A stretch of DNA of 64,000 nt from a virus (taxonomy: Duplodnaviria > Heunggongvirae > Uroviricota > Caudoviricetes). Both the position numbers and the translations under genes were made by a program. Below the pieces are notes generated by a model. The model had not been told where the DNA came from. It searched no databases and saw nothing but the letters and a program-made list of their open reading frames with translations. This document shows, piece by piece, positions 3,875-63,671 of this stretch (position 1 is the stretch's first letter; the number at the start of each line of letters is the position of its first letter). The stretch lies in the IMG/VR virus record IMGVR_UViG_3300046522_000748, one strand, 5' to 3'.

Positions 3875-3913
3875 ATTATATAGGAGTCATGCCTAACTGT
3901 CAATATCGCTGAC
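3875..3913 (-). promoter_or_regulatory. Sigma70 promoter with GTCA-N7-TGAC operator
   Basis: TTGACA-N17-TATAAT; operator at 3899-3913. Confidence 0.85.
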
Positions 3914-4030
3914 TGCAAGAATAGACAACAATCAATTTCTTCGATAATTACTATAGGAAATCATCGCTTAACAATAAGTTAATCACGATAGATAATTATC
4001 ATGAAAACAATAAATCACATAGGATAAAAG

Positions 4031-4147
4031 ATGAAAAAGCTTGTTGTTGTATTGATGTTTGGTTTGTTTGCCACCTCTGCTATGGCTGAGGGCGGCGGTG
4101 ATCGGGTGATTGAGCGCAGTCAGGCGCATTCTGCACAGGTGAAATAA
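4031..4147 (+). CDS. PtrA N-terminal-domain-like secreted microprotein (38 aa)
   Basis: MKKLVVVLMFGLFATSAMA-EGGGDRVIERSQAHSAQVK: signal peptide plus the AEGGGDR motif typical of Pseudomonas PtrA-like proteins; AGGA SD; absent from the ORF track. Confidence 0.7.
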   Translation: MKKLVVVLMFGLFATSAMAEGGGDRVIERSQAHSAQVK

Positions 4148-4185
4148 CCCAGGCGCTGGATTTTGATCGATTATTTGAGATAACA

Positions 4186-4211
4186 AAAAACCCAGCCGAA
4201 GCTGGGTTTTT
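4186..4211. terminator. Bidirectional intrinsic terminator
   Basis: AAAAACCCAGC-CGAA-GCTGGGTTTTT between convergent genes. Confidence 0.8.
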
Positions 4212-4272
4212 ATTGACATCTTCTTGAGAGGCTTGCACTATCACTTAACTTAAATGATAATGCTTCTCATCC

Positions 4273-4758
4273 TCAAAAAGGAATGTCGTCGTCGAAACTG
4301 TCAAAATCAGGTGCCGGTTGCGGTGCAGATTGTTGCGGCGCCGACTGCTGCTGTGGTGCGGATTGTTGTGGGCGAGGCGCGGATTGACGCGGGGCGGAAT
4401 TGTCACCTTCAGGGCGACCGCCCAGCAGTTGCAGGGTGCCGTTGATGCTGTCCACCACAATTTCAGTGGTGTAGCGTTTCACGCCGTCTTTTTCCCATTC
4501 GCGGGTTTGCAGCTTGCCTTCCACGTAGATCTGGGAGCCCTTGCGGACGTACTCGCCAGCGATTTCAGCAACTTTGCCGAAAAACGATACGCGGTGCCAT
4601 TCGGTCTTCTCGACCTTCTGGCCACTTTGTTTGTCCGTCCAGGTTTCGCTGGTGGCCAGGGTCAGATTGCAAACGGCATTGCCGTTTGGCATGAAGCGGG
4701 ATTCAGGATCGCCGCCGACGTTACCGACCAGAATTACTTTGTTTACACCGCGTGCCAT
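4273..4758 (-). CDS. ssb: Single-stranded DNA-binding protein
   Basis: [13 protein letters not shown]...EWHRV...[14 protein letters not shown]...DDDIPF; Pseudomonas-type; start moved to the ATG at 4758. Confidence 0.97.
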
Positions 4759-4816
4759 GATGTGATTCCTTTGAGTGCTGTATGTGTGGTTTTGGGTGAT
4801 TCGTTGAATATGATTT

Positions 4817-4845
4817 ATTATATATCCACGCCTGTGTTGCGTCAA
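4817..4845 (-). promoter_or_regulatory. Sigma70 promoter of ssb
   Basis: TTGACG-N17-TATAAT; only a degenerate operator half-site. Confidence 0.8.
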
Positions 4846-4873
4846 TATAATTTCGAACTATATTTTATGATTG

Positions 4874-5386
4874 TCAAAATTTCCGTGGAATCCACACGTA
4901 TCGGGAGCTTGGCTTTTCAACGACGGTCACGGAAACCAATTTGTCGCCGTAACCCACTGGCCCCTTTTCGCCTGAAGCATTCATGACGAAATTATTGGCG
5001 TCCTCTCGGGTGAATGTTTTTGCGTAACGCGGATCAGACGTGTAGCCATGCTCTGTCACAAAATGCTCAAAACCAAAAGCCGTTGTGTATTTGATGCGAG
5101 CCACCAGCCCTTTTTTCTCATCCTCTAGCTGTCTGTTGGCATAAATCTCAAGCCGTTCAATGGCTTGGGGAAATGACATCTGCTTTGGGGTGTAGGAAGT
5201 CTCCCAGTCTTTGGGAATGAGGCCGGTTGGCGCCAAGGAGAGATACCAGATCATTGGTGTCTCGGGGTCATCCTGGTCGAGTTTTGACCCCAAGAGGACA
5301 CCGTAGGGCACTGAGAGGTGCTGAATGGCGTATTCAGGCTTGTGGCCGGGGGCGCTATAGCGCTTAGCGGTAAGGGTGGTGTCCAT
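4874..5386 (-). CDS. Hypothetical protein
   Basis: 170-aa ORF; TTGTTG-N17-TATTAT upstream. Confidence 0.7.
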   Translation of the reverse strand: MDTTLTAKRYSAPGHKPEYAIQHLSVPYGVLLGSKLDQDDPETPMIWYLSLAPTGLIPKDWETSYTPKQMSFPQAIERLEIYANRQLEDEKKGLVARIKYTTAFGFEHFVTEHGYTSDPRYAKTFTREDANNFVMNASGEKGPVGYGDKLVSVTVVEKPSSRYVWIPRKF

Positions 5387-5453
5387 AAGGCTTCTCTAAT
5401 TCCAATATTATTGGATAATATCACTCCCTTTTCATTGCAACAAGATTATGCCT

Positions 5454-5762
5454 TTATTCTCCTGCCCAGCTCTTTGCTGCTTTTAGCTCTTTTTGGAGGT
5501 GATCGATTTCTTTTTGAAGATCGAGCTGTTCAAGATGGTGCTGGCGTTTTTTCTCCTCCGCAGGAAGGAACATCAGCGTATCCAGGTGAAGGTCGGGCGG
5601 CATCCGGCACAGTGCCTGAATGCAGATTTCCACATGGATAAAGTCTTTGTCTTCTTGAAGCTCTGCGGCTTCGCTTTCAAGCTTCTCGGCCATTTCGCGT
5701 AGCACTTTAGCGGTGCGCCGAATCGCCTCAACAGTGGGGCGGACAATGATTTCTCGGGACAT
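5454..5762 (-). CDS. Hypothetical coiled-coil protein
   Basis: ORF; probable start MSREIIV. Confidence 0.65.
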   Translation of the reverse strand: MSREIIVRPTVEAIRRTAKVLREMAEKLESEAAELQEDKDFIHVEICIQALCRMPPDLHLDTLMFLPAEEKKRQHHLEQLDLQKEIDHLQKELKAAKSWAGE

Positions 5763-6926: not shown

Positions 6927-7511
6927 TTAGAAACCGAAAACATCACCGGAGAGTTTGATTGTCCAGTCACGGCTGCCCTCTTCACCGATGCGTACAGCCT
7001 CGATTTTTTTGAGAGCAATTTCGTCCAGTTGGCTGTCGTAAGTCACACGAGCCAGACTCTGGAATTCAGGTCGCAGGTTTGGCTTCATTCGTTCGACCAA
7101 CTGTTGAGCTTGTGTGCGCAACAGGCTGTCCAGTTCGCCGAAGTTGCTGTCCCAGCAACTGTCGTGATAGGTCTTTTCGAGGTACTGGCCATTGCCGCTG
7201 TGCAGATTTCTCGCCTGATCGTCGCTCCCGATCTGCATCAGGGTGCGAGTGTAGTTCATTGGTCGAACCAGCAAGAGGTTAACCCGCAGCGTGGTGAAGC
7301 CTTCGGTGATCGCTTCATAGATCCCGTCACCTTCTTCACTGTTGTCGCATTTATTGCGGCAAAGGTCAGTCAGATCAGCGTAATCCAGGTGCAGGCTGGC
7401 TCGCGCTTTGAACTTGATCAGCAGGCCGCGATCTTCACCGGAGCCACGGGGCAACATGCAATCCATTGTGGCGCGGGCAATCTGGCGAAGATCAAAATTA
7501 ATAATGCTCAT
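6927..7511 (-). CDS. Hypothetical protein
   Basis: 194 aa, ATGA-coupled to the upstream ORF. Confidence 0.7.
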   Translation of the reverse strand: MSIINFDLRQIARATMDCMLPRGSGEDRGLLIKFKARASLHLDYADLTDLCRNKCDNSEEGDGIYEAITEGFTTLRVNLLLVRPMNYTRTLMQIGSDDQARNLHSGNGQYLEKTYHDSCWDSNFGELDSLLRTQAQQLVERMKPNLRPEFQSLARVTYDSQLDEIALKKIEAVRIGEEGSRDWTIKLSGDVFGF

Positions 7512-7804
7512 GCGTTGCTGGCCTCGACTGCTGTGGTTTTTTCCATGTCGATTTCAGTGTACCCGTATTCGCAGACCCAGTTTTTGCAATAGTTTTTATA
7601 CCACCGCAGGGCTCTGAATTTGTTGGGCACCGTCTTTTCGTAGGAGCGTTGATAGTCACTGCGCACTTTCTCGTGCAGCAATGCCACGGAGTAATTTTCA
7701 CGACCGAACCAGAAATCACGACCACTGATGCAGGAGAAGCTTACGTCATAGATCTCAATGCCGTCTTCAACTTCCACAAACAGAATAATGTTATCAGCGC
7801 TCAT
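7508..7804 (-). CDS. Hypothetical protein
   Basis: 98 aa, GGAGG SD. Confidence 0.7.
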   Translation of the reverse strand: MSADNIILFVEVEDGIEIYDVSFSCISGRDFWFGRENYSVALLHEKVRSDYQRSYEKTVPNKFRALRWYKNYCKNWVCEYGYTEIDMEKTTAVEASNA

Positions 7805-7828: not shown

Positions 7829-7867
7829 ATAGTAGCAATCCTTGCTACAATTGTCAATACCAATGAC
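7829..7867 (-). promoter_or_regulatory. Sigma70 promoter with operator
   Basis: TTGACA-N17-TACTAT; GTCA-N7-TGAC at 7853-7867. Confidence 0.85.
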
Positions 7868-7944
7868 ATTTATGTTTCCTTCTATACGTGCTCCGGTTTC
7901 TTATTGTTAACCGAACAAAAAGGCCATTATTTTTGATAATGATA

Positions 7945-9702: not shown

Positions 9703-10353
9703 TTAACCGACTTTGACCGACTGCGCTTTCCGATTGATAAGCACAAACACCATGCAGTTATCGATGGAGAAACTGGTGCTGCCTTCTGTCTCACCAATGA
9801 TGTCGAGTTTACGAGCATTGGCGGGTGTTGGCAGGATGGGATAGGCACCGTGGAATTCTTGATCCTCCAAGAGAAACACGTCTCCAGGCTTAGCTTCGGT
9901 CAGCACCTCGCCGTTGCTCAAAAGCTTGCAGCCTTTAGGGGCATGCAACAGGATCACAATCGACTGTTCGCAGTGTACCGAGGAATTTCGATCATGATGG
10001 TAGCCGACATAATCGCTGATCAAGTAGCTGGCATAGAGCTTCACCAACCCGGAGGGATTGGGCATCATGCTCTTCAGTTGCTCAATCAGCTCCCTGTCTT
10101 TAACCAACTCCGAACAGTCAGTCCATTTGGCCAACATGTCGCGTACGTTATCGCCGTCAGGATGAAATCGGACATCCTCAGTGGCGCCTGACCAGCCATC
10201 AGTAAATCGGGCACTGGCCGACCCTGTGGCGAAATAATTGGTCAGCAGCTTGCTGACCAATTGATCGTCGAGGCTTCCAAGATGAGCAATGCCCTGAGCC
10301 TCGTTCATTGGAACGCCCAGGGCATCTTGAAGGCGGAGCATTTGATACTGCAT
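9703..10353 (-). CDS. Putative 2OG-Fe(II)/DSBH dioxygenase, paralog A
   Basis: DYVGYHHD (HxD) ... ILLHAPKG ... GDVFLLED..FHGAYP (distal H) ... LINR. Confidence 0.6.
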   Translation of the reverse strand: MQYQMLRLQDALGVPMNEAQGIAHLGSLDDQLVSKLLTNYFATGSASARFTDGWSGATEDVRFHPDGDNVRDMLAKWTDCSELVKDRELIEQLKSMMPNPSGLVKLYASYLISDYVGYHHDRNSSVHCEQSIVILLHAPKGCKLLSNGEVLTEAKPGDVFLLEDQEFHGAYPILPTPANARKLDIIGETEGSTSFSIDNCMVFVLINRKAQSVKVG

Positions 10354-10354
10354 C

Positions 10355-11008
10355 TCAAGCCTCGTGATAATCGCGACTGATCACAATACAGGACGCGCAA
10401 TTATCACCCACGAAACGATGAAAATCTTCGTCCACGGAATTGCGCAACTTCATGACATCAATGGTTTCGGTCACTTGCATTGGATAGGCTCCGTGTACCT
10501 TGCTGTCATCCAGCAGGTAGGCGCCGCCGACGCTGAGTTGCGTCAGGTGCTGCTCAGTACCGTTGGTCATCATCGTCAGGCCTTTGGGCGCCTCCAGCAG
10601 GATCACAACTGAGCCAGCGAACTTCTCAAAACCCGTATCAGTATGGGCACCGATGTAATCGAGCATCAGAAAGTCATAGGTCAGATGATCAAGCTCTTCA
10701 GCTCGCGGTATGATCGCTTTGAGGCTTTCCTGAATGTCGGGGTCATTCATGTGAGCATCGCCTGGAGCCCACCGATACAGCATGAATCGGCCTAGATTGC
10801 GGCCATTGGGGTGCAGGCCAATATCCAGTTCAGAGGGCTCTGAACCCTGTGAAAAACGCAGCATGGGCATCACTTGCGCCTTGCACAAGGCCAGCAATTT
10901 CTCACGAGCCGCTGGCTCAATGTCGCCCAGTCTGGTGGTGCCTGTTCTGTCGTTGAGTTTAGCCCCGATGATGTCGGGCAGCCCGTTCACAGCGTTGTGA
11001 TCAAACAT
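10355..11008 (-). CDS. Putative 2OG-Fe(II)/DSBH dioxygenase, paralog B
   Basis: DYIGAHTD ... ILLEAPKG ... YLLDDSKVHGAYP ... VISR; start MFDHNAV. Confidence 0.6.
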   Translation of the reverse strand: MFDHNAVNGLPDIIGAKLNDRTGTTRLGDIEPAAREKLLALCKAQVMPMLRFSQGSEPSELDIGLHPNGRNLGRFMLYRWAPGDAHMNDPDIQESLKAIIPRAEELDHLTYDFLMLDYIGAHTDTGFEKFAGSVVILLEAPKGLTMMTNGTEQHLTQLSVGGAYLLDDSKVHGAYPMQVTETIDVMKLRNSVDEDFHRFVGDNCASCIVISRDYHEA

Positions 11009-11010
11009 AC

Positions 11011-11460
11011 TCAAGCGGCCTGAATGGTGATGATGTGTGGAGTAAGATCCTGCGCCAAATCTGCTTTGAACAAAATGCTCGACGCTGGCAACATCGCAAG
11101 GCACAGCGCACTGTTAACCACTTGCAGAGACGTTGCAAAATCTTCATCGTTTTCCGGGTAAGGGAGTTTGCCGTCAATAAAGGCGCTATTCCACTCGGCG
11201 TCAGAGCTGTAGCCCCTCTTGCGCTTTGTGAAAGACAGTGGCTCACAGAAAGAAGCATCGTCAGGCCTCAGCAGGTAGCCGTGAACCTCAACCAACAGAA
11301 CAACGGGATCGCTGCCATCTTCTTCAGACGCGCACTCCGCGTAATAGTCGGCGGACTCATTGCAGTCAGTCAAAAACAGGCGCTTGTTAAAAGCCCTGTC
11401 GTGCATGATGCCTTCCAGGCATTTGATGCTGGTGCCATGCATGAGCCGCAGAATGGTCAT
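11011..11460 (-). CDS. ADP-ribosyltransferase-fold / KptA(Tpt1)-like protein
   Basis: LMHGTS...I...LFLT...A.YYA...PVVLLVEV pattern of H-type ART/KptA-like domains. Confidence 0.55.
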   Translation of the reverse strand: MTILRLMHGTSIKCLEGIMHDRAFNKRLFLTDCNESADYYAECASEEDGSDPVVLLVEVHGYLLRPDDASFCEPLSFTKRKRGYSSDAEWNSAFIDGKLPYPENDEDFATSLQVVNSALCLAMLPASSILFKADLAQDLTPHIITIQAA

Positions 11461-11490: not shown

Positions 11491-11529
11491 ATGATAACAA
11501 AATACACTGCAAATGTCAATTACAATGAC
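11491..11529 (-). promoter_or_regulatory. Sigma70 promoter with operator
   Basis: TTGACA-N17-TATCAT; operator at 11515-11529. Confidence 0.85.
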
Positions 11530-11530
11530 A

Positions 11531-11866
11531 TTATTTGGAATCTTCGGCTTTCTCCTGGGCTTGCAGCCAAACCTGCCATTCGTCATGAGAAAAACCAAGG
11601 GCAGCCACTCGACCTGAGCAGTTTGCCGCGCCCATACACCCGCACATTCCGCCACCGCACCAGCGGGTGCGCCAGTACTCCGGCATTTGTTGCATGACGA
11701 AATCCAGTTGCTCTTGTCGGCTACCGGCAATTTCCAAGTAGCGCATAGGGAGTTTGACTCCCATTGTGACATGGTGCTCTTGAATCATCGCCTCCAGGGC
11801 TTCTCGGCTCTCCATCAAAAACAGCTTCTGATCGCCTTCGGCGCTGGTGGCTTGAAAAATTGGCAT
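11531..11866 (-). CDS. Cys-cluster protein, paralog 1
   Basis: MPIFQ...RWCGGGMCGCMGAAN...LGFSHDEWQVW; AAGGA SD. Confidence 0.75.
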   Translation of the reverse strand: MPIFQATSAEGDQKLFLMESREALEAMIQEHHVTMGVKLPMRYLEIAGSRQEQLDFVMQQMPEYWRTRWCGGGMCGCMGAANCSGRVAALGFSHDEWQVWLQAQEKAEDSK

Positions 11867-13461: not shown

Positions 13462-13824
13462 CTATTGATCTTCAGGGTGATCGGTGACCCAGTTTTGCCA
13501 TTGTTTCTTCGTGTAGCCGAGAGCGGTTAGGCCCGCTGTGCTGCGCGCTTTGTCATCCAGGAGACGGCCAGCCTTGTTGGCGGAGCCGGAACAACTGCAC
13601 CGTTTGGACACGCACCAGTGGTTGCGATGCTCTTCTTGCATGTGTTCCATCACCCACTCAAAAATCTGAGCACGGGTGCCTATGAATTCAGCGAAAAAGA
13701 CAATGGGGAATTTTGCGCGAACCTCACCATCAGTTTGTGCAAGGCGCTTATCTAGTACGTCCCTGCTTGCTGCACGATGCAGGAATTTCGTTTTGTTACC
13801 ATAGGAGACTTGAAAAACCGGCAT
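13462..13824 (-). CDS. Cys-cluster protein, paralog 2
   Basis: MPVFQ...HWCVSKRCSCSGSAN...LGYTKKQWQNW. Confidence 0.75.
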   Translation of the reverse strand: MPVFQVSYGNKTKFLHRAASRDVLDKRLAQTDGEVRAKFPIVFFAEFIGTRAQIFEWVMEHMQEEHRNHWCVSKRCSCSGSANKAGRLLDDKARSTAGLTALGYTKKQWQNWVTDHPEDQ

Positions 13825-13847
13825 GAGGATTCCTAATGAGAAATGAG

Positions 13848-14174
13848 TTACTGCTGCGCTTGGTTTGCAGAGACCCAGACTTCCCACTCACTTTTTTCAA
13901 AGCCCAGGCGAGCCAGAGCACCAGGGCCATTGGCGCAGCCCATACAGCCGCAGCGCGCAGACTCGCACCAGCGCCCTCTGTAGTTCTCTTGCATGTTCTG
14001 CATGATCCAATCCAGTTGCTCTGCACGAGTACCGCAGACCTCATGAACGACCAAAGGCAGCTTAATCCGTTCATTCCACGCATTATCGGTCAAATACGCC
14101 TCTAGCTCGGCTTGAGAGTCACTCAGAAACAGTCGTTTGACACCGCCAAAGGGTTTTACTTGGAAGATAGGCAT
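13848..14174 (-). CDS. Cys-cluster protein, paralog 3
   Basis: MPIFQ...RWCESARCGCMGCAN...LGFEKSEWEVW. Confidence 0.75.
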   Translation of the reverse strand: MPIFQVKPFGGVKRLFLSDSQAELEAYLTDNAWNERIKLPLVVHEVCGTRAEQLDWIMQNMQENYRGRWCESARCGCMGCANGPGALARLGFEKSEWEVWVSANQAQQ

Positions 14175-15942: not shown

Positions 15943-16647
15943 TCAGTAGTAATAGGTGTACAGTGCAAAACTCATAGCGGTTTCATTGGCATACTGCTCG
16001 ACGCGTTCAACGTCACCAGTAAGGCCATTGATCTCTGACTCTGGCATTGCTCGTGTTGGAAACACCGCATGTTCAGACAAGTCATCCATCAAATACACAC
16101 CGCCGACTTCTGCTTGAGTGATGTGGGTGCCGTTGGTAACAATCTGGCAGCCATAAGGCGCATTCAGGAGAATCGCCAGAACGCCGCGATTTTTTTCTTC
16201 CGCGAGTTTGACGTCATCGTGAAAGCCGACAAAATCACAGATCAGGTAGGTAAGGTCGAGCGATTCGATAGCGTCGCGATTTGGCACCAGATCTTTCAAA
16301 AAGTCTTTGTCAACAAGAGTGCCCATCGAGTCCCATTGCGAGATGCATTGGGTAACCGCATTACCGTTCGGGTGCATCACCTTATCTCTGGCTTCCGCTG
16401 GCCAACCGGCATCGCCGGAGCCTTTTGCAAACCAGCACAACGGAGGCACCATTCTGTTCATGCAGCCATAAAAAAGTCTCAGGCGAATAAGCTCATCGAC
16501 CGAGCCAACATGGCTAATATGGGTATTTGGATCAACCTTCAGATCCAGGAGTGTTCCCAGAAAAAACTCATCGTCATTGGGAAACGGAAGCGCAGCTTCG
16601 TCATAGCTCGGTACGACTTCCTCAACAGCGAATGCAGGCGTGGCCAT
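15943..16647 (-). CDS. Putative 2OG-Fe(II)/DSBH dioxygenase, paralog C
   Basis: DFVGFHDD ... ILLNAPYG ... VYLMDDLSEHAVFP. Confidence 0.6.
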   Translation of the reverse strand: MATPAFAVEEVVPSYDEAALPFPNDDEFFLGTLLDLKVDPNTHISHVGSVDELIRLRLFYGCMNRMVPPLCWFAKGSGDAGWPAEARDKVMHPNGNAVTQCISQWDSMGTLVDKDFLKDLVPNRDAIESLDLTYLICDFVGFHDDVKLAEEKNRGVLAILLNAPYGCQIVTNGTHITQAEVGGVYLMDDLSEHAVFPTRAMPESEINGLTGDVERVEQYANETAMSFALYTYYY

Positions 16648-16679
16648 ATATCTCGATCCGGCTTGTCTTTAATTTGGTT

Positions 16680-16708
16680 ATTATATACATAGCATGATTT
16701 TCTGTCAA
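16680..16708 (-). promoter_or_regulatory. Sigma70 promoter
   Basis: TTGACA-N17-TATAAT, no operator. Confidence 0.8.
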
Positions 16709-16724
16709 ATTAAGGCAGCTAAAA

Positions 16725-17366
16725 TCAGCATTTTTCCTGCGGGTTAAGCTCGCGAGTTATCAGGAGAAATTTCATGCAATTGGCCCGGCCAAACTTGATG
16801 GCTTTTTCCTCATTCTGCGCAAAAGCATCACGATTATATCGCGTGGTTTTTCGCTCGGGGTACACAGCATGAAACAATGAGTCATCCACCACAAACACAT
16901 CGCCTCGGCGCAACTTTGTCAGGTGCTTTCCATTTGATAGCACCCTACAGCCTTTTGGGGCGTCAAGCAGAATGCACAGTGCGCCAACCTCATACGTGTC
17001 ATGCATATGGGTATCGCGATGCAAACCAACGTAATCACAGATCATTTGACCTGCGCTCAGATTGTCGATGGAGCTGATGCCTGGGATTAGCGGCTCAAGA
17101 AATTCCAGGCTAATTGGCAAGTCGTTGCGGTGCCAACTGACCGCGCACTCATTGCCCAACCCCAGTTTTTCATTGGGATGATGCTCATAATCGGTCGCCT
17201 CTGGCTTCCATCCTTCTGAGCTGGTGAGATGGCAGCCGTCTTGGTCGATGTTCAGGCATATCGCCAGATCCCGCACCACCGCCAAAGGCAGCCGCCCTAC
17301 GTGCGAAAGGCCCAGGGCTTGGTCTGCGGCTAGCCCCAGGCTTTCGCGAAGGTATTGGGTGGTCAT
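16725..17366 (-). CDS. Putative 2OG-Fe(II)/DSBH dioxygenase, paralog D
   Basis: DYVGLHRD ... ILLDAPKG ... GDVFVVDDSLFHAVYP ... LITR. Confidence 0.6.
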   Translation of the reverse strand: MTTQYLRESLGLAADQALGLSHVGRLPLAVVRDLAICLNIDQDGCHLTSSEGWKPEATDYEHHPNEKLGLGNECAVSWHRNDLPISLEFLEPLIPGISSIDNLSAGQMICDYVGLHRDTHMHDTYEVGALCILLDAPKGCRVLSNGKHLTKLRRGDVFVVDDSLFHAVYPERKTTRYNRDAFAQNEEKAIKFGRANCMKFLLITRELNPQEKC

Positions 17367-18462: not shown

Positions 18463-18500
18463 ATTATACTCGGATCAAGGTGTTTGTCAATCACATTTAC
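18463..18500 (-). promoter_or_regulatory. Sigma70 promoter with one-mismatch operator
   Basis: TTGACA-N16-TATAAT; GTCA-N7-TTAC at 18486-18500. Confidence 0.8.
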
Positions 18501-18570
18501 TCGTGGTGCCGTAGACTGGAAATGTTTGTGCCCTCGGGTTGTCGAGGGCACAGAACAACACGTGGGGGGA

Positions 18571-19369: not shown

Positions 19370-19408
19370 ATTATAGTGACCCGACAAGCTTTCGTCAATG
19401 TCACTGAC
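19370..19408 (-). promoter_or_regulatory. Sigma70 promoter with operator
   Basis: TTGACG-N17-TATAAT; operator at 19394-19408. Confidence 0.85.
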
Positions 19409-19430
19409 CAAAATAAATGATTAATTACGA

Positions 19431-21323: not shown

Positions 21324-21444
21324 ATTCTAGCGTCACCCTTGTGCGCAGTCAATCATGCTGACCTTAATCCGACAAAAATACTGGCGAGATCAGTGCTTTT
21401 CGGCTGTCATTTATATTGACATTTTATGGATTTTTGAGTAGAGT
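21324..21444. promoter_or_regulatory. Divergent promoter pair, each with a perfect operator
   Basis: Minus strand TTGACT-N17-TAGAAT (operator 21348-21362); plus strand TTGACA-N17-TAGAGT (operator 21406-21420). Confidence 0.85.
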
Positions 21445-21483
21445 TTCCTCACTGCGGGTTTCTCACCAACTTAAGGCGCCAAC

Positions 21484-21726: not shown

Positions 21727-21758
21727 TATTTTGATCGGGCGTATATCGGGATTCCTGT

Positions 21759-21797
21759 GTCAACACCATTGACACCGATGTGCATTCCGAGTACAAT
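21759..21797 (+). promoter_or_regulatory. Sigma70 promoter with operator
   Basis: TGTCA-N7-TGACA; TTGACA-N17-TACAAT. Confidence 0.85.
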
Positions 21798-22650: not shown

Positions 22651-23022
22651 ATGCACCAGCCTCATGCCATCCCTTTGTTCACCCTGGTCGAAATTCTCGG
22701 CAACCCTGAAGATCCAAGGATTAACGATGGCTTGCGCCTGTATGTTCAATTCCACGAATACGACTGCGATGGCACACCACTGTACGCGCTAACATCCAAC
22801 TTCAAAACCATCGGGCGGCATTTGCAAAGCCGCCTCGGTATGACTGATGAGGATCGTGCATATTACCTGCGCCACGGCAGGGCTGTCATGCATGGTTACT
22901 CGGAAAAATCATTGGTTGTAATTCACTCTGCTGAAATCACTCTGGCCGGTCTGGCAGAAGCAGGGTATCGCTTCGATGGCAAATCGGTCGAATGGATAGA
23001 GCGCGACCAGTCTGCCATGTAA
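22651..23022 (+). CDS. Hypothetical protein
   Basis: 123 aa; LYV..H.YDCDGTPLYAL motif of phage-type proteins. Confidence 0.7.
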   Translation: MHQPHAIPLFTLVEILGNPEDPRINDGLRLYVQFHEYDCDGTPLYALTSNFKTIGRHLQSRLGMTDEDRAYYLRHGRAVMHGYSEKSLVVIHSAEITLAGLAEAGYRFDGKSVEWIERDQSAM

Positions 23023-23057
23023 ATCACATTGACAATATTTCGAGGGTTGTGTATACT
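23019..23057 (+). promoter_or_regulatory. Sigma70 promoter with one-mismatch operator
   Basis: GTAA-N7-TGAC; TTGACA-N17-TATACT. Confidence 0.8.
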
Positions 23058-26466: not shown

Positions 26467-26505
26467 ATTATACTCACATACAACCACATGGTCAACCTTA
26501 TTGAC
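26467..26505 (-). promoter_or_regulatory. Sigma70 promoter with operator
   Basis: TTGACC-N17-TATAAT; operator at 26491-26505. Confidence 0.85.
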
Positions 26506-26574
26506 ATTGCAGCCCAGCTTCTTAAACGGATATTATTTAGTTGACGTATATCGCATGATTTGTATAATCGAATC

Positions 26575-27078: not shown

Positions 27079-27117
27079 ATTATATCGGCAGTTGGCCACC
27101 ATGTCAATACAGATGAC
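27079..27117 (-). promoter_or_regulatory. Sigma70 promoter with operator
   Basis: TTGACA-N17-TATAAT; operator at 27103-27117. Confidence 0.85.
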
Positions 27118-27216
27118 AATTTATTATTGCCAGTTTGGTCATCTCTGTTGCTTGACCTGCCCAAGCAAAAACCCCCTGGACGAGTCCAAGGGGTTTCATG
27201 TCAACTGCGCGCGTCC

Positions 27217-29727: not shown

Positions 29728-29765
29728 ATTATACATAAGGCCAGGCGTTTGTCAATATAATTTAC
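29728..29765 (-). promoter_or_regulatory. Sigma70 promoter with one-mismatch operator
   Basis: TTGACA-N16-TATAAT; GTCA-N7-TTAC at 29751-29765. Confidence 0.8.
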
Positions 29766-29818
29766 AGATAATCATAGTGATGTCGGGGGCTGTTTTGCCC
29801 CCTTCACCATCGAGCGGC

Positions 29819-30454: not shown

Positions 30455-30493
30455 ATTATAGTCAATCACGAATCAAATGTCAATGTCATTTAC
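30455..30493 (-). promoter_or_regulatory. Sigma70 promoter with one-mismatch operator
   Basis: TTGACA-N17-TATAAT; GTCA-N7-TTAC at 30479-30493. Confidence 0.8.
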
Positions 30494-30543
30494 AGGTATC
30501 CTAAAAACAAAGGAGCCTTCCTGGCTCCTTCTTTATTGGAAGA

Positions 30544-30807: not shown

Positions 30808-30846
30808 ATTTTAACCAATCACAATCAATTTGTCAATTGCAGTGAC
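30808..30846 (-). promoter_or_regulatory. Sigma70 promoter with operator
   Basis: TTGACA-N17-TAAAAT; operator at 30832-30846. Confidence 0.85.
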
Positions 30847-30848
30847 AT

Positions 30849-32507: not shown

Positions 32508-32546
32508 ATTATATAGAACCAGCACACCAGTGTCAACTCAAATGAC
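32508..32546 (-). promoter_or_regulatory. Sigma70 promoter with operator
   Basis: TTGACA-N17-TATAAT; extended palindrome CAGTGTCA-N7-TGACACTG. Confidence 0.88.
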
Positions 32547-32568
32547 ACTGGCGCCCGTTGTCGATGGA

Positions 32569-39959: not shown

Positions 39960-40038
39960 ATTATACGCAAAGCCTAGCTGCCTGTCAATGCCATTGACCA
40001 ACAATGATCATTGACAGAACCAATACTGAAAATATAAT
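39960..40038. promoter_or_regulatory. Divergent promoters with operator
   Basis: Minus strand TTGACA-N17-TATAAT with operator 39984-39998; plus strand TTGACA-N16-TATAAT at 40011-40038. Confidence 0.85.
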
Positions 40039-42216: not shown

Positions 42217-42221
42217 GATTA

Positions 42222-42768: not shown

Positions 42769-42790
42769 TCTTAATGAGTTTAATATCTCC

Positions 42791-45719: not shown

Positions 45720-45758
45720 ATTATACCATTGCCTTCCATCAATGTCAATAACACTGAC
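45720..45758 (-). promoter_or_regulatory. Sigma70 promoter with operator
   Basis: TTGACA-N17-TATAAT; operator at 45744-45758. Confidence 0.85.
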
Positions 45759-45779
45759 AATTATGGCGTCCCCGTAAAT

Positions 45780-47830: not shown

Positions 47831-47858
47831 AAGGCGCATTATAACGCGCTTTAAGTGG

Positions 47859-48655: not shown

Positions 48656-48693
48656 ATTATACTCACTCACAAGAAATTGTCAACATGAATGAC
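48656..48693 (-). promoter_or_regulatory. Sigma70 promoter with operator
   Basis: TTGACA-N16-TATAAT; operator at 48679-48693. Confidence 0.85.
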
Positions 48694-48729
48694 ATTTTCT
48701 GCATCAATAACGCAGTGCTGCTGGTGATT

Positions 48730-50965: not shown

Positions 50966-51226
50966 TTAGTACTGGGATACGTCTATCGCATCGCCCTCTT
51001 CTGTCAGTTCCATGCTTTCGGTGAAGACAAAACCATCGGGCATTGGGTCTTCGACGGTTTGAAAGCAAAGTCCCTGCTTGATCAGTTTTTTGAAAACCGA
51101 CATGCCCGGCGTTATAAACCCCAGGGCGTCCTTCTCTGTTTTTTCAGGAATTCGGCTGACCAGAATGGAAATGTCACGCTTCAGCCATTTGATGGCTTCA
51201 ACCTCTGTCGCTGTGAATTTCATCAT
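50966..51226 (-). CDS. Small winged-helix-like protein
   Basis: VFKKLIKQGLC...ELTEEG. Confidence 0.6.
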   Translation of the reverse strand: MMKFTATEVEAIKWLKRDISILVSRIPEKTEKDALGFITPGMSVFKKLIKQGLCFQTVEDPMPDGFVFTESMELTEEGDAIDVSQY

Positions 51227-51259: not shown

Positions 51260-51298
51260 ATTCTACGCAAGTCCGAGCTTAATGTCAATATGAATGAC
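51260..51298 (-). promoter_or_regulatory. Sigma70 promoter with operator
   Basis: TTGACA-N17-TAGAAT; operator at 51284-51298. Confidence 0.85.
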
Positions 51299-51302
51299 AT
51301 GC

Positions 51303-51877: not shown

Positions 51878-52105
51878 TTAATTCACCGGGCCTGGAAAAT
51901 ATTCAGTGCCTTTGATCGTGGTGGTCATTGCGCTTTTAACAGCACCCAGCAACGTCGGTGCTACCGTTTCACAACGACCGAAGCCGTCAACTTGCCATGT
52001 CAATCGAAAGTTGTGGAAGTCGCTGGACGCATTTGCGACGTTTTCATGATCCGCCAGCCACGCCCAGCAGATTTGTTCTTCGGTCAATTCATTTTTGTCG
52101 AACAT
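51878..52105 (-). CDS. Small hypothetical protein
   Basis: 75 aa, AAGGTG SD. Confidence 0.65.
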   Translation of the reverse strand: MFDKNELTEEQICWAWLADHENVANASSDFHNFRLTWQVDGFGRCETVAPTLLGAVKSAMTTTIKGTEYFPGPVN

Positions 52106-52195: not shown

Positions 52196-52234
52196 ATTCT
52201 AAAGGCCCTGAGACCCAATGTCAATACTAATGAC
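52196..52234 (-). promoter_or_regulatory. Sigma70 promoter with operator
   Basis: TTGACA-N17-TAGAAT; operator at 52220-52234. Confidence 0.85.
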
Positions 52235-52253
52235 AAGATGCCGAAATCTTGAA

Positions 52254-55733: not shown

Positions 55734-56287
55734 TGCTCGGTGTCCTTAGGGCCAAACATAGCCTCGATTTCTTCATCAACCATGGCTTGCAAGCGCTGAT
55801 TGATGCCCATAACGAGTTCGTCCAGGCGGAAATAGTGATCAGCCTCATCTTCGGGTTCAATCCTGACGATGTTGTTCATCTGACGGCTCAGGCCGTAGAG
55901 CAATGGCTTGAAGACCTTTTCCATCACTGAACGATACCCCCAGTTATGTTTGCCGTTCAGCGGCAGGTTGTAGGCGATGTCATCGTTTTTGAAGGCAAAC
56001 GACAGCTCCACGATGCCGGGCTCTGGTGTTCGAACCACCGTCAGCGTTTGCTGAAAGTACTCGAAGACCACAATGTCAGCTTCTTTGGCGCTGGCAAAGG
56101 CCTCGGAGATGGCTGTGCGGTGCTTGAGCGTGTTCTCAATCTCTTCGCGCTCGTGCTTGATGATCGGTGCCAGCACCTCGCCAGCGAGCCACTGAAAGCG
56201 TTTGGCATCGCTCAGGCCGAACAGGTGCGGAGCGTAAAACCGGAAGGTAATTCGAAAATCCGGTTTTACGGCTGGCTGCATGCTCAT
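55730..56287 (-). CDS. Hypothetical protein
   Basis: ATGA-coupled, GGAGG SD. Confidence 0.7.
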   Translation of the reverse strand: MSMQPAVKPDFRITFRFYAPHLFGLSDAKRFQWLAGEVLAPIIKHEREEIENTLKHRTAISEAFASAKEADIVVFEYFQQTLTVVRTPEPGIVELSFAFKNDDIAYNLPLNGKHNWGYRSVMEKVFKPLLYGLSRQMNNIVRIEPEDEADHYFRLDELVMGINQRLQAMVDEEIEAMFGPKDTEQ

Positions 56288-56880
56288 TGCGCGCCTCCCA
56301 GGAAAGCGAACATGCGCTCTTGGTCGGTCTTTTCAGGCGGGACGGCGTAGCAGTATTCGTTGGTTCGTTCGTGGTAGAACAGGCATGCGTCATCACGCTC
56401 AGTGAGATCCAGCTCGTTGTTGAATGCGACCAACAATTCGCGGTCGGCCTCGGTGGCCGGTTTGATGCAGCCGCGCAGGGCAACGCGAACGTGGGCACAA
56501 ACGCGAAGTTCGGACACCAGCAGTTCATCGAGCTGGGCAGCAATGGCATGAATGGAGGGGTTGGAAAAGTCGATGTGCTCGGCCTTAACCAACAGCTCAA
56601 GCTTATAGCGATCAGCTTCGTCGCAGGCAACCAGTGAGGCGGTTTCGAGTGCGTAGCGAATGACTTCAGCATCTCGCATCAGGTTGTTCTGATACGACAG
56701 ATCAGAGGCATTGACCTCGGCATCTTGAGCTTTCACTTCGCCCAGGATTTTTTCGCAGGCATCGAGCGAGACTTGAATCAGCTCACGCTTGATCCATTCC
56801 AGGCGGCTGGCAATGGAATCGAAATGCGCCATTTCTGGAAGATTCATGAAGATGCCGATTTTGCAGTCGCGCTGAGTCAT
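56284..56880 (-). CDS. Hypothetical protein
   Basis: 198 aa, first gene of a long operon. Confidence 0.7.
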   Translation of the reverse strand: MTQRDCKIGIFMNLPEMAHFDSIASRLEWIKRELIQVSLDACEKILGEVKAQDAEVNASDLSYQNNLMRDAEVIRYALETASLVACDEADRYKLELLVKAEHIDFSNPSIHAIAAQLDELLVSELRVCAHVRVALRGCIKPATEADRELLVAFNNELDLTERDDACLFYHERTNEYCYAVPPEKTDQERMFAFLGGAQ

Positions 56881-56910: not shown

Positions 56911-56949
56911 ATTATACCCACGGCCAGAGCAATTGTCAATGTGAATTAC
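56911..56949 (-). promoter_or_regulatory. Sigma70 promoter with one-mismatch operator
   Basis: TTGACA-N17-TATAAT; GTCA-N7-TTAC at 56935-56949. Confidence 0.8.
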
Positions 56950-57005
56950 AGGGCGATAGCAGTCTTGCGGTGGGCAATAATCTCACCGCAAGACTGTGCT
57001 GAGGA

Positions 57006-60128: not shown

Positions 60129-60514
60129 CGTGCGTCCTGGGCTCAATCCGGTTCGGCAGGCGATTGCCTCCGCTTTCCCTCTAGGCCATTCAGTCGGTAT
60201 CTCTTAGCGCGGATTTTCGCCTAAGCCATTTTTTTGATGTTGTCACTATACTCCCCTCTGTCACGATTGTCAATGCAAAAAACTGTCATTCTGTCTGACT
60301 AGACATTGGTTTTCAAATTTCAACAAACGAAATTGTGTCGCATGCGACATGCGTTTTTTGACCTTTGACTATTCCATTTAGAAAACTATTGCGGTGATTA
60401 AGGCTGCATTATTATAGTCGAAATATAATTATTGTTCTGCCTAATTTACAAATGATAATTTCGTGTAGAATACAATTATTCGTTAATAACAATAAAAATA
60501 AAACGAGACAATCG

Positions 60515-61681
60515 ATGAAGAAATTACACATCGCAATTCTTGCGGGGTTGGCTGCATTTTCTCAGCTTTCCAGTGCGCAACAAAATCACAGGATTTACTT
60601 TCCACTCAGTGAAACAGTACCCGCTAAGAGTAATCCTGGTGAGATTGACCCAGGAGAAACCATTCCTGATGAAAATTATGATCCTGAGGTTTGGCGACAG
60701 ATTGATCCGGTTTATGGTGAATGGGCAAACATTACTACACCAAATTGCTCTTATTGGTATCCATTGACTTCCGATGTGGCAAAAGGCGCAGCATTCAATC
60801 AGGTTTCCTACGATTGCGCCGTTCAACAGAGTCGCACTGTTCAGCGCCGTATATTGAATAACAACACAGCTGAAGTAAAAAACATTGGCGCCGTATTTAA
60901 AGAAACCCAAGCCGCAATTGTATTTGATAGCAGGCCATCAGTTGGCACCGGGGAAGAGTGGTTGCCGTTTGACCCGCTTTATTCCAGCTGGGCCGCGACC
61001 TCGGAGCCTTACGGTTGTGCTTCATGGAGTCCATCCGCCACAAGTGTAACGGTTGCATCGACCTTTACACAAAATTCTGACTCTTGCCTTATCTCGCAGC
61101 AGCGCACTAAAACCAATCAGGAGCAGGAGAGATTTTCTCTAGCTATTCGTACCGCTGGGGCTCCCATTAATGAATCGCAGGTGCTGAACAATCAGTCATC
61201 GACCAGGAGTTATACAGTTAAAGTATCTGATTGGGCTGACAATGGCCAATATTCAGACTGCACTGGGTGGTTGCCGCTGACCTCGACTCAAGCGACTGGA
61301 ACTTTTTTTACGCAAACTCAAACTTGTACTGCCACGCAGGCCAGAACAATTAACGGCTTTATTGGATCGACCCCAGACCCTGAATATAAAACGGTGACGC
61401 AAACCCAATCGGTTCCAAATAAAACAAGAGCGCAGCAGGCTGTAGGCACAATGGCAGAAAAGGTCTGTAAGGGAGACGCTTCCAACTATATGCAGGCGCT
61501 CAACACTTGGAACGGAAAAGTCGGATACACCATCGCTTGGAATGGTGTAAACATTCTTTACACCGAGACTTCAACGCCTACGACTTATACAAAAGATGGG
61601 TATACCTACACCAGAGATTATGCTTTCTACCGTGACTCTACGGTATCGAAATATGTAATATGTCGAGAGGCAGCCCAGTAA
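60515..61681 (+). CDS. Secreted Cys-repeat protein
   Basis: Signal peptide MKKLHIAILAGLAAFSQLSSA; three C..W.P...G..F.Q...C...Q.RT repeats as in 46791..47450. Confidence 0.85.
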   Translation: MKKLHIAILAGLAAFSQLSSAQQNHRIYFPLSETVPAKSNPGEIDPGETIPDENYDPEVWRQIDPVYGEWANITTPNCSYWYPLTSDVAKGAAFNQVSYDCAVQQSRTVQRRILNNNTAEVKNIGAVFKETQAAIVFDSRPSVGTGEEWLPFDPLYSSWAATSEPYGCASWSPSATSVTVASTFTQNSDSCLISQQRTKTNQEQERFSLAIRTAGAPINESQVLNNQSSTRSYTVKVSDWADNGQYSDCTGWLPLTSTQATGTFFTQTQTCTATQARTINGFIGSTPDPEYKTVTQTQSVPNKTRAQQAVGTMAEKVCKGDASNYMQALNTWNGKVGYTIAWNGVNILYTETSTPTTYTKDGYTYTRDYAFYRDSTVSKYVICREAAQ

Positions 61682-61725: not shown

Positions 61726-61752
61726 ATCACTTCACTACGGAGATCTTTCATC

Positions 61753-61839
61753 ATGAAAATTGGTAGCCAAGAAGACAAAGTACCGGGCATCGGTGCGGAA
61801 GAAATTGGTTCGCAGGAAAGCGGCGTCGGCGAGGGCTAA
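61753..61839 (+). CDS. Micropeptide, 28 aa (MKIGSQEDKVPGIGAEEIGSQESGVGEG)
   Basis: GGAG SD, directly after the promoter; internal IGSQE repeat. Confidence 0.6.
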   Translation: MKIGSQEDKVPGIGAEEIGSQESGVGEG

Positions 61840-61883
61840 AATCCGCCTGCTTCTCATCAATTCTACTGAACAAGGAGCCTGCC

Positions 61884-61910
61884 ATGAGCGTTGGATTCGG
61901 CGACAGCTAA
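61884..61910 (+). CDS. Micropeptide, 8 aa (MSVGFGDS)
   Basis: AAGGAG SD; stop abuts the terminator. Confidence 0.45.
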   Translation: MSVGFGDS

Positions 61911-61940
61911 AAACAGGGGGCAGTGCCCCCTGTTTCTTTT
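61911..61940. terminator. Bidirectional intrinsic terminator
   Basis: AAACAGGGGGC-AGT-GCCCCCTGTTT-CTTTT. Confidence 0.8.
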
Positions 61941-61942
61941 AC

Positions 61943-62488
61943 TCACTCAGCAGAATGGTCGAGTGCCAGCGCGTAATCTGTCATGTCGTGCGCTGAGATC
62001 GAATAGCCCCCTGATGTCAGATAGTCTCCTGCCACAGCAATCATTGGCTCAGGACTCCAGCTTACGGCGATGTGCAGTTCATCTCCTTCAATTTCCAGAA
62101 GCCTCATCAATTCCTTTGTTAGCATGAGTGCCTGGACGGTTGCCTGCTTTTTGAAGGCTTTGAAATCGGTGGTCAGCGCTTCGTATGCGTCCAGTCCGTA
62201 GTTATTGATGATGGTGCCCGGTTCAATCGCCCATTCGTTGTACACAGTTTCGCCTTGGCGAGTCTTGCCGATGGCCACCGCATTCCTGGCAATCACGTGC
62301 GATTCCAGTATCGTTATGGACGACTCCTTTCGTATGCCCCTTCCCTCCTTCACAAATGTTGTTAGTTCATTGTTAATTTCGGATGTGTTAGGTAATCGCA
62401 ACAATGTTTCGGCTGTTTTCTGATAATGGGGAGCCCTTTCCAGCATCGCTTTGATTGCTGGACGGCCTAAATAATTAATGCAGTTCAC
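61943..62488 (-). CDS. PGDYG-like domain protein
   Basis: Y.K, NEW.I......Y, SW...M.A..GDYL...YSI. Confidence 0.55.
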   Translation of the reverse strand: MNCINYLGRPAIKAMLERAPHYQKTAETLLRLPNTSEINNELTTFVKEGRGIRKESSITILESHVIARNAVAIGKTRQGETVYNEWAIEPGTIINNYGLDAYEALTTDFKAFKKQATVQALMLTKELMRLLEIEGDELHIAVSWSPEPMIAVAGDYLTSGGYSISAHDMTDYALALDHSAE

Positions 62489-62625
62489 GGATCACCTTTT
62501 TATTTTTATTATATAACGAAAAATCCCCGCTCGTGGGCGGGGATTTTTCTGTATCTGATGATGTTACCTCTACCGCAGGAATACAAAAGAATTATCGGCG
62601 GCGATCACATTTAGTTTGTTGCAAA

Positions 62626-62985
62626 TTAATAGTTCTGGGGAAAGATGATAAATTGCACATGTTCAATCAGGTTGCTATCAAGCCCGTGTCGTTTCAGTAC
62701 ATCAATAATTTCCTCTCGGTCTTTCTGGTAAGTCTCATTGAGCTTTAGCTGTTTTGCAATCAGATCTGCCGTCGTAATCAGCTTTCCAAACACCCCGGCT
62801 TCTCCTAGATCTCGAAAGATCACGGTGCCCCATTCCTTACCTTCGTTATCTTCAGTGAACGAAACAAACTCGATTCCGGCAGACCCGCAATCGGTTTCTT
62901 CTTGGTGCCTGATTACCTGCTCGTATTGTTCATCGGTTAAAAGATCGCCATGAAATCCATATCCGAAACGGTTGTAAGATTGCAT
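62626..62985 (-). CDS. Hypothetical protein
   Basis: ORF followed by terminator 62519-62548; start uncertain. Confidence 0.65.
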   Translation of the reverse strand: MQSYNRFGYGFHGDLLTDEQYEQVIRHQEETDCGSAGIEFVSFTEDNEGKEWGTVIFRDLGEAGVFGKLITTADLIAKQLKLNETYQKDREEIIDVLKRHGLDSNLIEHVQFIIFPQNY

Positions 62986-63078
62986 CTGTGCCCCCATTTG
63001 TTGTTGAGAGGGATATATTATCACAGATTCGATGAGCGTTAAACGCTCAGCCCGGCGTTGGCCGGGCTGATTTTTCTT

Positions 63079-63603
63079 TCAGTAAATATTGGCAGGATCG
63101 TTGAGCTGGTACACCTTTTCGATCAGGTGGCTAGACTCTTGAACGATCCGAAATTCGATTGGCCAATCACCATCTTCAAGCAGCTTTTGCTTGGCAAAGT
63201 GCTTCAGATTATTCAGTGTGAAATATTCACAATTCGGAAAGGTCATCAAGTCCTTATAAACACCCGAAAAAAAGCTTTCATCGTCACGGGTCGCGAAATT
63301 CAGCGTTTTTCCGAATGCAGTAACCACCTGAATATAGAAGTACTCACGGTGGCCTTCAAACAGGCTTGGCTCTGAGGCGATCAGGCCGTTGACTCGACCC
63401 AGCATGGCTTCCTCGGTCAAAGCGTCCAGGCGGTCTACCATCTCATAAGCCAGCAGTCGATTGATGCGCCAATCGCTTACGCCCGGCGTGTTCTCGTTGT
63501 GGTGCTCTTCGGTGATGAGACCAACAGCTTTGCCTTTTTCATCGACCACATGAAAAACTCGAACGGCAGGATTGCGGGAGCGAAGGCGTTTGATTTCTAG
63601 CAT
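63079..63603 (-). CDS. Hypothetical protein
   Basis: 174 aa, terminator 63047-63077. Confidence 0.7.
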   Translation of the reverse strand: MLEIKRLRSRNPAVRVFHVVDEKGKAVGLITEEHHNENTPGVSDWRINRLLAYEMVDRLDALTEEAMLGRVNGLIASEPSLFEGHREYFYIQVVTAFGKTLNFATRDDESFFSGVYKDLMTFPNCEYFTLNNLKHFAKQKLLEDGDWPIEFRIVQESSHLIEKVYQLNDPANIY

Positions 63604-63632
63604 GAGTCAGATCCGGATGGGTTTGTGTAGTA

Positions 63633-63671
63633 ATTATGCCAAACCCCTGATGAAATGTCAATGCCACTGAC
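63633..63671 (-). promoter_or_regulatory. Sigma70 promoter with operator
   Basis: TTGACA-N17-CATAAT; operator at 63657-63671. Confidence 0.85.

Follow-up and report, generated by a model that had tools for sequence, protein, structure and literature searches.

Global repressor regulons, in which one repressor controls several strong maintenance or establishment promoters, are known from conjugative plasmids, among them those of the IncP group (KorA/KorB/KorC) and of the IncN group (ArdK/CUP). Here we describe a putative regulon of a related kind in a 64,000-nucleotide stretch of DNA recorded as viral (Caudoviricetes; IMG/VR record IMGVR_UViG_3300046522_000748; hereafter the window), which is 64 kb of a 1.14-Mb uncultured mobile element; all counts below refer to this window unless stated otherwise. 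Many of its strong σ70 promoters carry a 17-bp dyad (the box), one half of which is the -35 hexamer. The lambdoid repressors Cro and CI likewise use 17-bp operators, which are bound by dimers of Xre-type helix-turn-helix (HTH) proteins and repress by overlapping the -35 or the -10 element, and the 13-mer recognised in mycobacteriophage L5 contains TGTCAA, the complement of the -35 hexamer TTGACA.

In the IncW plasmid R388, the network regulators ArdK, KorA and StbA are all repressors; ArdK is autoregulated and represses five promoters of this 34-kb plasmid, and expression overshoots after transfer (PMC3937220). The Reg protein of the Bacillus plasmid p576 governs another global repressor regulon (PMC8708921). 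The C1 repressor of phage P1 recognises 22 dispersed 17-bp operators that are asymmetric (ATTGCTCTAATAAATTT) and placed at varied positions (PMC8546580), and more than 20 sites for a single repressor, gp71, lie in promoters and short intergenic spaces of mycobacteriophage L5 (PMC9283540).

The exact sequence GTCA-N7-TGAC was found 22 times in the window, i.e. once per 2.9 kb, compared to 1.02 ± 0.94 times (maximum 3) in 100 dinucleotide shuffles. The excess is specific for the gap of seven nucleotides, since gaps of 0 to 15 other than 7 yielded 0-4 sites each. Nineteen of the 22 perfect boxes are intergenic, with noncoding DNA making up only about 30% of the window (p = 7e-8). In 17 perfect copies the -35 element of a near-consensus σ70 promoter forms the proximal half of the box, and the same is true of five copies with one mismatch (at 18486, 23019, 29751, 30479 and 56935), which all carry the identical change of the distal GTCA to GTAA. 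The initial annotation of the window had listed these 17 and five sites, and every one of them was recovered at its position. One-mismatch matches as a whole were in slight excess only (33 versus 22 ± 5.6 in shuffles). Outside promoters, perfect matches at 2050, 33892 and 34937 lie within genes and are promoterless, at about the level expected by chance, and the one at 50048 is a terminator-like hairpin, whose stem of seven base pairs closes a loop of three and is followed by a T-rich tail.

The position matrix of the promoter-linked boxes, with zero at the first T of TTGACA, reads T-11 G-10 T-9 C/A-8 A-7 W-6 T-5 nnn A-1 T T G A C A and thus describes a 17-bp dyad, TGTCAWT-N3-AWTGACA. Beyond the half that is forced by the -35 element, the mirror pairs T-11/A+5, G-10/C+4, T-9/A+3, A-7/T+1 and T-5/A-1 are conserved, while the central three nucleotides are random. 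The centres of the two 7-bp half-sites are 10 bp, or one helical turn, apart; with the start site taken 7 nt past the -10 element, the box spans approximately -46 to -30 and is centred at about -38. Conserved outer half-sites, a variable centre and about 10 bp between the half-site centres are the usual features of lambda/Xre-type 17-bp operators, and the box has them all. It also overlaps a core promoter element in the way polymerase exclusion would require, the proximal half being the -35 hexamer in all 22 promoter-linked copies. Pairwise identity is 0.74 inside the box, whereas the spacer (17 nt) and the flanks (34 nt upstream, 30 nt downstream) reach only 0.25-0.30. Since flanks and spacers are unrelated, at the level of random sequence, the boxes are independent instances and not copies of a cassette; duplication, which had already been argued against, was rejected, the paralogues of the window being only about 30% identical. 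Motif, dyad symmetry, fixed register with real-looking promoters and independence from the flanks are properties of the sequence itself. The promoter-linked sites and the genes behind them are as follows.

3898..3914, minus strand: box with -35, AGTCAGCGATATTGACA; -10 TATAAT; first gene 3616-3846 (76 amino acids, aa)
7852..7868, minus strand: box with -35, TGTCATTGGTATTGACA; first gene 7508-7804 (98 aa)
11514..11530, minus strand: box with -35, TGTCATTGTAATTGACA; first gene 11011-11460 (149 aa)
18485..18501, minus strand: one-mismatch box, AGTAAATGTGATTGACA; 12/12 core; gene 17634-18428
19393..19409, minus strand: box with -35, GGTCAGTGACATTGACG; first gene 19154-19336 (60 aa)
21347..21363, minus strand: box with -35, GGTCAGCATGATTGACT; gene 20964-21290 (108 aa); divergent to the box at 21405..21421, 58 bp away
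21405..21421, plus strand: box with -35, TGTCATTTATATTGACA; gene 21484-21726 (80-aa orphan)
21758..21774, plus strand: box with -35, TGTCAACACCATTGACA; gene 21824-22060 (78 aa, zinc-ribbon-like with four Cys)
23018..23034, plus strand: one-mismatch box, TGTAAATCACATTGACA; gene 23085-23516 (143 aa)
26490..26506, minus strand: box with -35, TGTCAATAAGGTTGACC; gene 26075-26428 (117 aa)
27102..27118, minus strand: box with -35, TGTCATCTGTATTGACA; 12/12 core; gene 26683-26982
29750..29766, minus strand: one-mismatch box, TGTAAATTATATTGACA; ahead of the 666-aa phrog_1735 gene 27662-29662 and the 134-aa gene 27217-27621
30478..30494, minus strand: one-mismatch box, TGTAAATGACATTGACA; 12/12 core; just past the terminator 30531-30509; gene 29819-30412 (197 aa)
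30831..30847, minus strand: box with -35, TGTCACTGCAATTGACA; gene 30544-30780 (78 aa)
32531..32547, minus strand: box with -35, TGTCATTTGAGTTGACA; 12/12 core; gene 31900-32481 (193 aa, HAD_SAK_2 RNA-repair-type domain)
39983..39999, minus strand: most symmetric box, GGTCAATGGCATTGACA; 12/12 core; gene 39676-39930 (84 aa)
45743..45759, minus strand: box with -35, TGTCAGTGTTATTGACA; 12/12 core; gene 45451-45687 (78 aa)
48678..48694, minus strand: box with -35, TGTCATTCATGTTGACA; 12/12 core; genes 48254-48613 and 47920-48225
51283..51299, minus strand: box with -35, TGTCATTCATATTGACA; gene 50966-51226 (86 aa)
52219..52235, minus strand: box with -35, TGTCATTAGTATTGACA; gene 51878-52105 (75 aa)
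56934..56950, minus strand: one-mismatch box, TGTAATTCACATTGACA; 12/12 core; gene 56284-56880 (198 aa) and downstream operon
63656..63672, minus strand: box with -35, GTCAGTGGCATTGACA; -10 CATAAT; gene 63079-63603 (174 aa)

Most first genes behind the boxes encode small and acidic proteins. The densest cluster, at 21347-21774, holds three boxes, two of them divergent, that flank the 80-aa orphan 21484-21726. One further dyad abuts a promoter and may be a tandem site:

60284..60300 (match at 60285), minus strand: extra dyad, AGTCAGACAGAATGACA, directly next to the degenerate box/-35 of promoter 60273

The pattern TTGAC-N17-19-TANNNT occurs 36 times, 27 of them on the minus strand, versus 4.1 ± 1.9 times in shuffles, in agreement with the roughly 35 near-consensus σ70 promoters counted before, and the perfect form TTGACA-N16-18-TATAAT (12/12) was found 15 times with 0.03 expected. 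Twenty-one box promoters fit the relaxed pattern; nine of these are perfect consensus promoters and 18 have TTGACA at -35. A 17-bp spacer is typical, and when the promoters are aligned on the -35 element an A is present at the expected start, 7 nt after the -10 element, in 13 of 18. An ATG follows at a median distance of about 30 nt, in many cases preceded by a ribosome-binding site, and most promoters have an open reading frame (ORF) on the correct strand. In several cases, e.g. at 31386-31364, 30531-30509 and 45415-45392, a promoter comes immediately after the strong terminator of the unit before it. Terminator, promoter and gene follow one another in a chain of short units, and 84 of the 106 called genes lie on the minus strand.

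The distal half was found at the N7 distance in 16 of the 36 promoter-like TTGAC sites (44%) and in four of the 139 other TTGAC sites (3%), which corresponds to an odds ratio of 27 (Fisher p = 1e-9). The claim that the -35 element does not force the distal half is borne out by this test. Overall, about 60% of the strong promoters share the site at a fixed register. The cores of promoters with and without the box are equally good, matching the consensus at 11.24 and 11.21 of 12 positions, respectively. The clearest strong promoter outside the set is a perfect-consensus, box-less one at 40011 on the plus strand; it faces away from the neighbouring, most symmetric box (39983-39999) and precedes a run of about eight plus-strand genes (40011-43144). 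Two other readings of the box were rejected: divergent promoters do not use the distal half as their -35 element, and the stem of a hairpin or single-stranded-DNA promoter, at only 4-5 bp, would be too weak.

Not all the sites proposed in the initial annotation held up. The eight weaker versions that it named are mostly not operators: they have 2-3 distal mismatches, and four are T-runs, two of which (31331 and 45374) are the tails of upstream terminators. The idea that operator strength grades derepression is not supported, as it leans on these weak sites, which can equally be read as A/T-rich, UP-like sequence or as terminator tails.

The box is rare in the control DNA. Homologues of the 666-aa protein at 29 metagenome loci (270 kb in total; 31-70% identity) are accompanied by a single GTCA-N7-TGAC altogether, and upstream of the 70%-identical relative (L137) both the promoter and the box are missing. 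Genomes of phages HRDY3, pf16 and Hena1 (314, 158 and 149 kb) contain four, eight and three boxes, respectively, near the control with the reversed pattern. A motif scan of IMG/VR returned, among the matches listed, contigs with single matches only; a few IMG/VR contigs have 3-4 GTCA-N7-TGAC sites that are not fused to promoters. An exception is contig L089 (IMGVR_UViG_3300042261_001210; 67% G+C), where two dyads 49 bp apart lie in an A/T-rich intergenic region (2710-2773); this two-site region looks like an ordinary local repressor switch with a similar half-site. A genome-contig protein search gave one distant match, relatives of two other window proteins were not found among viral contigs, and a string search for the motif found no match in the literature. 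Judged by these controls, a box every 2.9 kb is a peculiarity of the present element, which also appears to have placed its own promoter-operator module ahead of the 666-aa gene, which it shares with phages.

Like the systems of R388, IncP, IncN and p576, the window has several strong promoters, 22 in number, that share one site. ArdK, however, represses five promoters on 34 kb, whereas at least 22 are present here in 64 kb of a 1.14-Mb element. Unlike in the KorA/ArdK regulons, no protein of this type was detected: a KorA/ArdK/TrfB-family repressor was not found among the 122 ORFs of the window (Pfam, NCBIfam). The long repeated upstream elements that characterise CUP or EGeRS are absent, and the half-site is the -35 hexamer instead. 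From the establishment and anti-defence genes that such regulons contain (ardA/B/C, psiB, ssb, klcA), only ssb is present (4273-4758); it is the only leading-region-type gene, about 77% identical to the ssb genes of Pseudomonas plasmids, and no distal half is present in its promoter at 4845. The features examined do not support assigning the box set to the KorA/ArdK or leading-region class.

As in P1, around 20 17-bp sites, putatively for one repressor, are spread over many transcription units of a plasmid-borne element, but the asymmetric C1 operators occupy varied positions, while the box is a dyad in one register with the -35 element; no C1 homologue was seen. The many genome-dispersed sites for one repressor recall L5, where the repressor is, in contrast, a monomer whose asymmetric 13-mers are orientation-dependent and also stop elongation; here, symmetric dyads are fused to initiation sites. 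The box is therefore not an asymmetric, orientation-tied monomer site of either type. With lambdoid operators it shares the 17-bp dyad, the conserved outer 7 bp, the variable centre and half-site centres one turn apart. The lambdoid operators OR1-3 and OL1-3, however, are clustered beside the repressor gene, whereas the boxes are single sites distributed over dozens of promoters with no repressor gene adjacent. The logic of one repressor and many promoters is already known; what appears to set the present case apart is a symmetric dyad whose half-site is the -35 consensus, combined with perfect-consensus promoters and a much higher number of sites. In the light of these systems, the box set is best read as working like a global repressor regulon.

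A sequence-specific protein very probably binds the box. Our preferred explanation, which we consider somewhat better than an even bet, is that the dyad TGTCAWT-N3-AWTGACA is the operator of one dimeric repressor that would be encoded elsewhere on the 1.14-Mb element, and a single-operator regulon of mostly uncharacterised small genes is the likely outcome. Since the -35 hexamer lies inside the proximal half-site, a bound dimer would compete with σ70 region 4 for the bases that the latter reads, and initiation would be blocked. With the repressor absent, the box promoters would be extremely strong (mean core match 11.2/12). More than 20 transcription units per 64 kb, mostly for small acidic orphan proteins, would in this way be placed under one off-switch, to be released jointly upon entry into a repressor-free cell or upon inactivation of the repressor. 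Three observations argue for a repressor rather than an activator: promoter cores are equal with and without the box, so that no weakness of the core is being made up for; nine of 21 box promoters are perfect consensus and would need no help; and a megabase element with one of them every ~2 kb would, if they were not silenced, carry a heavy burden of transcription. The enrichment test of the distal half (16/36 versus 4/139), the intergenic bias and the conservation of mirror pairs indicate that the distal half is more than a by-product of the -35 element. Protein binding, repression, timing of the regulon and gene functions are the parts of this explanation that we infer.

Several results weigh against the explanation. 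About 40% of equally strong promoters are without the distal half. T-5 (11/15) and A-1 (12/15) are conserved also in the 15 promoters that lack a distal GT[C/A]A, and hence the innermost part of the dyad may be intrinsic to the promoters, or else the box-less promoters may hold degenerate operators. The gene of a box-binding repressor was not found; Pfam shows one HTH protein among the 122 window ORFs, and its gene has no box. In 20 scanned first genes behind boxes no DNA-binding domain was seen, even at E ≤ 1. The one-repressor regulon proposed for this DNA in the initial annotation is accordingly upheld as far as the shared dyad at fixed register on ~60% of the strong promoters goes, but not in respect of a repressor gene within the window.

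All 122 ORFs called in the window were scanned with Pfam, PHROGs and PADLOC. The HTH or ribbon-helix-helix gene autoregulated by the box that had been anticipated, or a cognate regulator next to a box, was not found in the window. The only gene for a recognisable DNA-binding protein is:

47522-47839, minus strand: Xre-type HTH gene, 105 aa, HipB/Y4mF-like, no box

This protein has a distant similarity to the Xre-family regulator of ICEBs1. Its gene follows a two-gene unit with a box promoter but is separated from it by a hairpin, and has its own TATAAT within a unique 16-bp palindrome, GCGCATTATAACGCGC (47834-47849), about 9 nt before the ATG, which suggests a leaderless or very short-leader, self-repressed gene. 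It is an orphan, with no toxin partner downstream. Being boxless and having its own palindrome, it was rejected as a box-autoregulated regulator. The 80-aa ORF 21484-21726 remains a speculation as a regulator: its winged-HTH match is very weak (E = 0.067), it has one homologue cluster, its neighbours in the protein atlas are unnamed viral clusters only, and its single-sequence AlphaFold model (predicted local distance difference test score, pLDDT, of 61) is too poor to use. Most probably, the regulator is encoded outside the 64-kb window.

The nature of the element was approached through its genes. Two window proteins match exactly to an element of 1,136,521 bp (JGI/IMG, Logan), and relatives with at least 90% identity to window proteins are found on other contigs (96.7, 119.8 and 71.0 kb and others; up to 120 kb). 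Apart from ssb, no close DNA relative was found in PLSDB or in the phage collection. Pfam recognises only 14 families in the 122 ORFs, 108 of which have no Pfam family; those seen are SSB, DUF4419, DUF2807, a phage ProQ-C-like domain, HAD_SAK_2, HNH, GIY-YIG, a weak NACHT and a few others. Known defence, anti-defence, anti-restriction and conjugation families were not detected among these ORFs (Pfam, PHROGs, PADLOC), nor were the Ard, Psi and Klc families, and the notion that the box defines a library of anti-defence genes accordingly found no known family to lean on. tRNA genes and Rfam families were not found in the window either. Two nuclease-type genes are present.

25700-26053, minus strand: HNH endonuclease, free-standing, 117 aa
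53359-54114, minus strand: GIY-YIG domain protein, 251 aa

Both are homing-endonuclease-like and of a sort typical of large phages. Because of these two genes, of the phrog_1735 module common to lytic phages and of many PHROG-only families, the gene content appears more phage-like than conjugative-plasmid-like, and it does not support the zygotic or anti-defence biology proposed in the initial annotation. The 666-aa phrog_1735 gene is common to the lytic phages pf16, HRDY3 and Hena1 and to phage-plasmid-like replicons; identity is approximately 30-40% to the proteins of lytic Pseudomonas and Erwinia phages and of the phage-plasmid-like replicons, which belong to Clostridioides, Shinella and Bacillus. 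In pf16 (gp55-56) as in the window, the next gene is a small ORF, gp55 in the phage and the 134-aa ORF 27217-27621 here. The plus-strand ORF 27446-29683, antisense to the 666-aa gene, is a long shadow artefact.

This content bears on a narrower form of the repressor explanation, contained within it, which we hold to be possible at well below even chances: that the boxes are operators of a phage-like master repressor, of the lysogeny or plasmid-prophage type, and that the regulon is not a conjugation-linked zygotic one but a giant phage-plasmid's programme for early lytic growth or takeover. P1 C1 (PMC8546580) and L5 gp71 (PMC9283540) are precedents for such silencing. The HNH and GIY-YIG genes, the 666-aa gene with its 134-aa follower and the 38 PHROG families of the window all fit it, as do the acidity of the proteins (76% of 89 confident ORFs have an isoelectric point, pI, below 6; median 5.4) and the arrangement of genes, mostly in one direction, in short promoter-to-terminator units. 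Set against this, the window contains no capsid, tail or terminase genes, and we know of no phage as large as this element of 1.14 Mb.

It is improbable that the dyad instead binds a dimeric activator or recruitment factor, of element or host origin, which would touch σ region 4 or alpha in a class II-like manner and boost or time the promoters. Class II activators of the CRP/FNR and LuxR types likewise use a dyad over the -35 region, and the box is restricted to promoters. Class II sites, however, are centred at about -41.5 next to a weak or absent -35 element, whereas the box is centred at ~-38 and has TTGACA in 18 of 21 promoters. Its proximal half is the -35 element itself, which implies competition with σ region 4 and not adjacency, and the cores, already at consensus, are no weaker than those of box-less promoters.

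Slightly less probable still is a distal element that is intrinsic to the promoter and read by the polymerase, through the alpha C-terminal domain or an element-encoded σ factor, with the palindrome being incidental. T-5 and A-1, conserved in all the strong promoters whether or not a distal GTCA is present, would be accounted for in this way, and the box-less promoters are A/T-rich at the same positions (TGAAAAT, TGATAAT, T-runs), like a proximal UP subsite. A UP element would be A/T-rich from -59 to -38 and have no dyad, and such A/T-rich versions occur in box-less promoters only, while the distal half of the box holds G and C and, always seven nucleotides away, repeats the -35 core exactly in reverse-complement form. 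A polymerase, moreover, has one σ region 4, and dyad symmetry is the signature of a dimer. Finally, that the boxes are a chance or compositional artefact of many TTGACA sequences has next to no probability: although the -35 element forces one half and the one-mismatch total is barely above the shuffles, this is refuted by the shuffle count, the specificity of the N7 gap, the conditional promoter test, the intergenic bias and the same substitution in all five promoter-linked one-mismatch copies.

Some other genes of the window deserve mention. Four proteins of ~215-250 aa (9703-11104 and 15943-17366) and three of ~110-120 aa (11531-11866 and 13462-14174) form two paralogue families without known domains, tandem or dispersed, with members 29-46% identical. 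The plus-strand ORFs 46791-47450 and 60452-61681 have a common 140-aa domain (31% identity) and an atypical codon and GC-phase pattern, and the N terminus of the 219-aa product resembles a signal peptide; the two ORFs have the look of foreign inserts between minus-strand units. A 480-aa P-loop protein (43126-44568, minus strand), with a weak NACHT/AAA_22 match (E = 9e-6) just under the Pfam cut-off, may be a STAND-type NTPase.

Nearly all genes of giant soil plasmids and phage-plasmids are of unknown function, and a cis-element found at over 20 transcription units in 64 kb would group such orphan genes as one co-regulated set. The box predicts a master regulator that could be fished with the 17-mer, and promoters of maximal strength with a built-in off-switch are possible genetic parts. 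With a half-site that is itself the -35 consensus, a large element would have a simple route for subjecting acquired genes to central control. The phage gene for the 666-aa protein may be an example; its 70%-identical relative has no such promoter. A bolder extension, which we regard as rather unlikely, is that an element of megabase size runs a phage-style immediate-early programme: small acidic orphans (candidates for host takeover or anti-defence), dozens to hundreds in number, would each have a perfect-consensus σ70 promoter and be under one repressor whose half-site is the -35 element. If true, any gene could be recruited by the addition of 7 bp upstream of a consensus promoter, and the box would be a ready-made catalogue of the entry genes of the element. 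The main value of the box would lie in the handle that it offers on a very large set of orphan genes.

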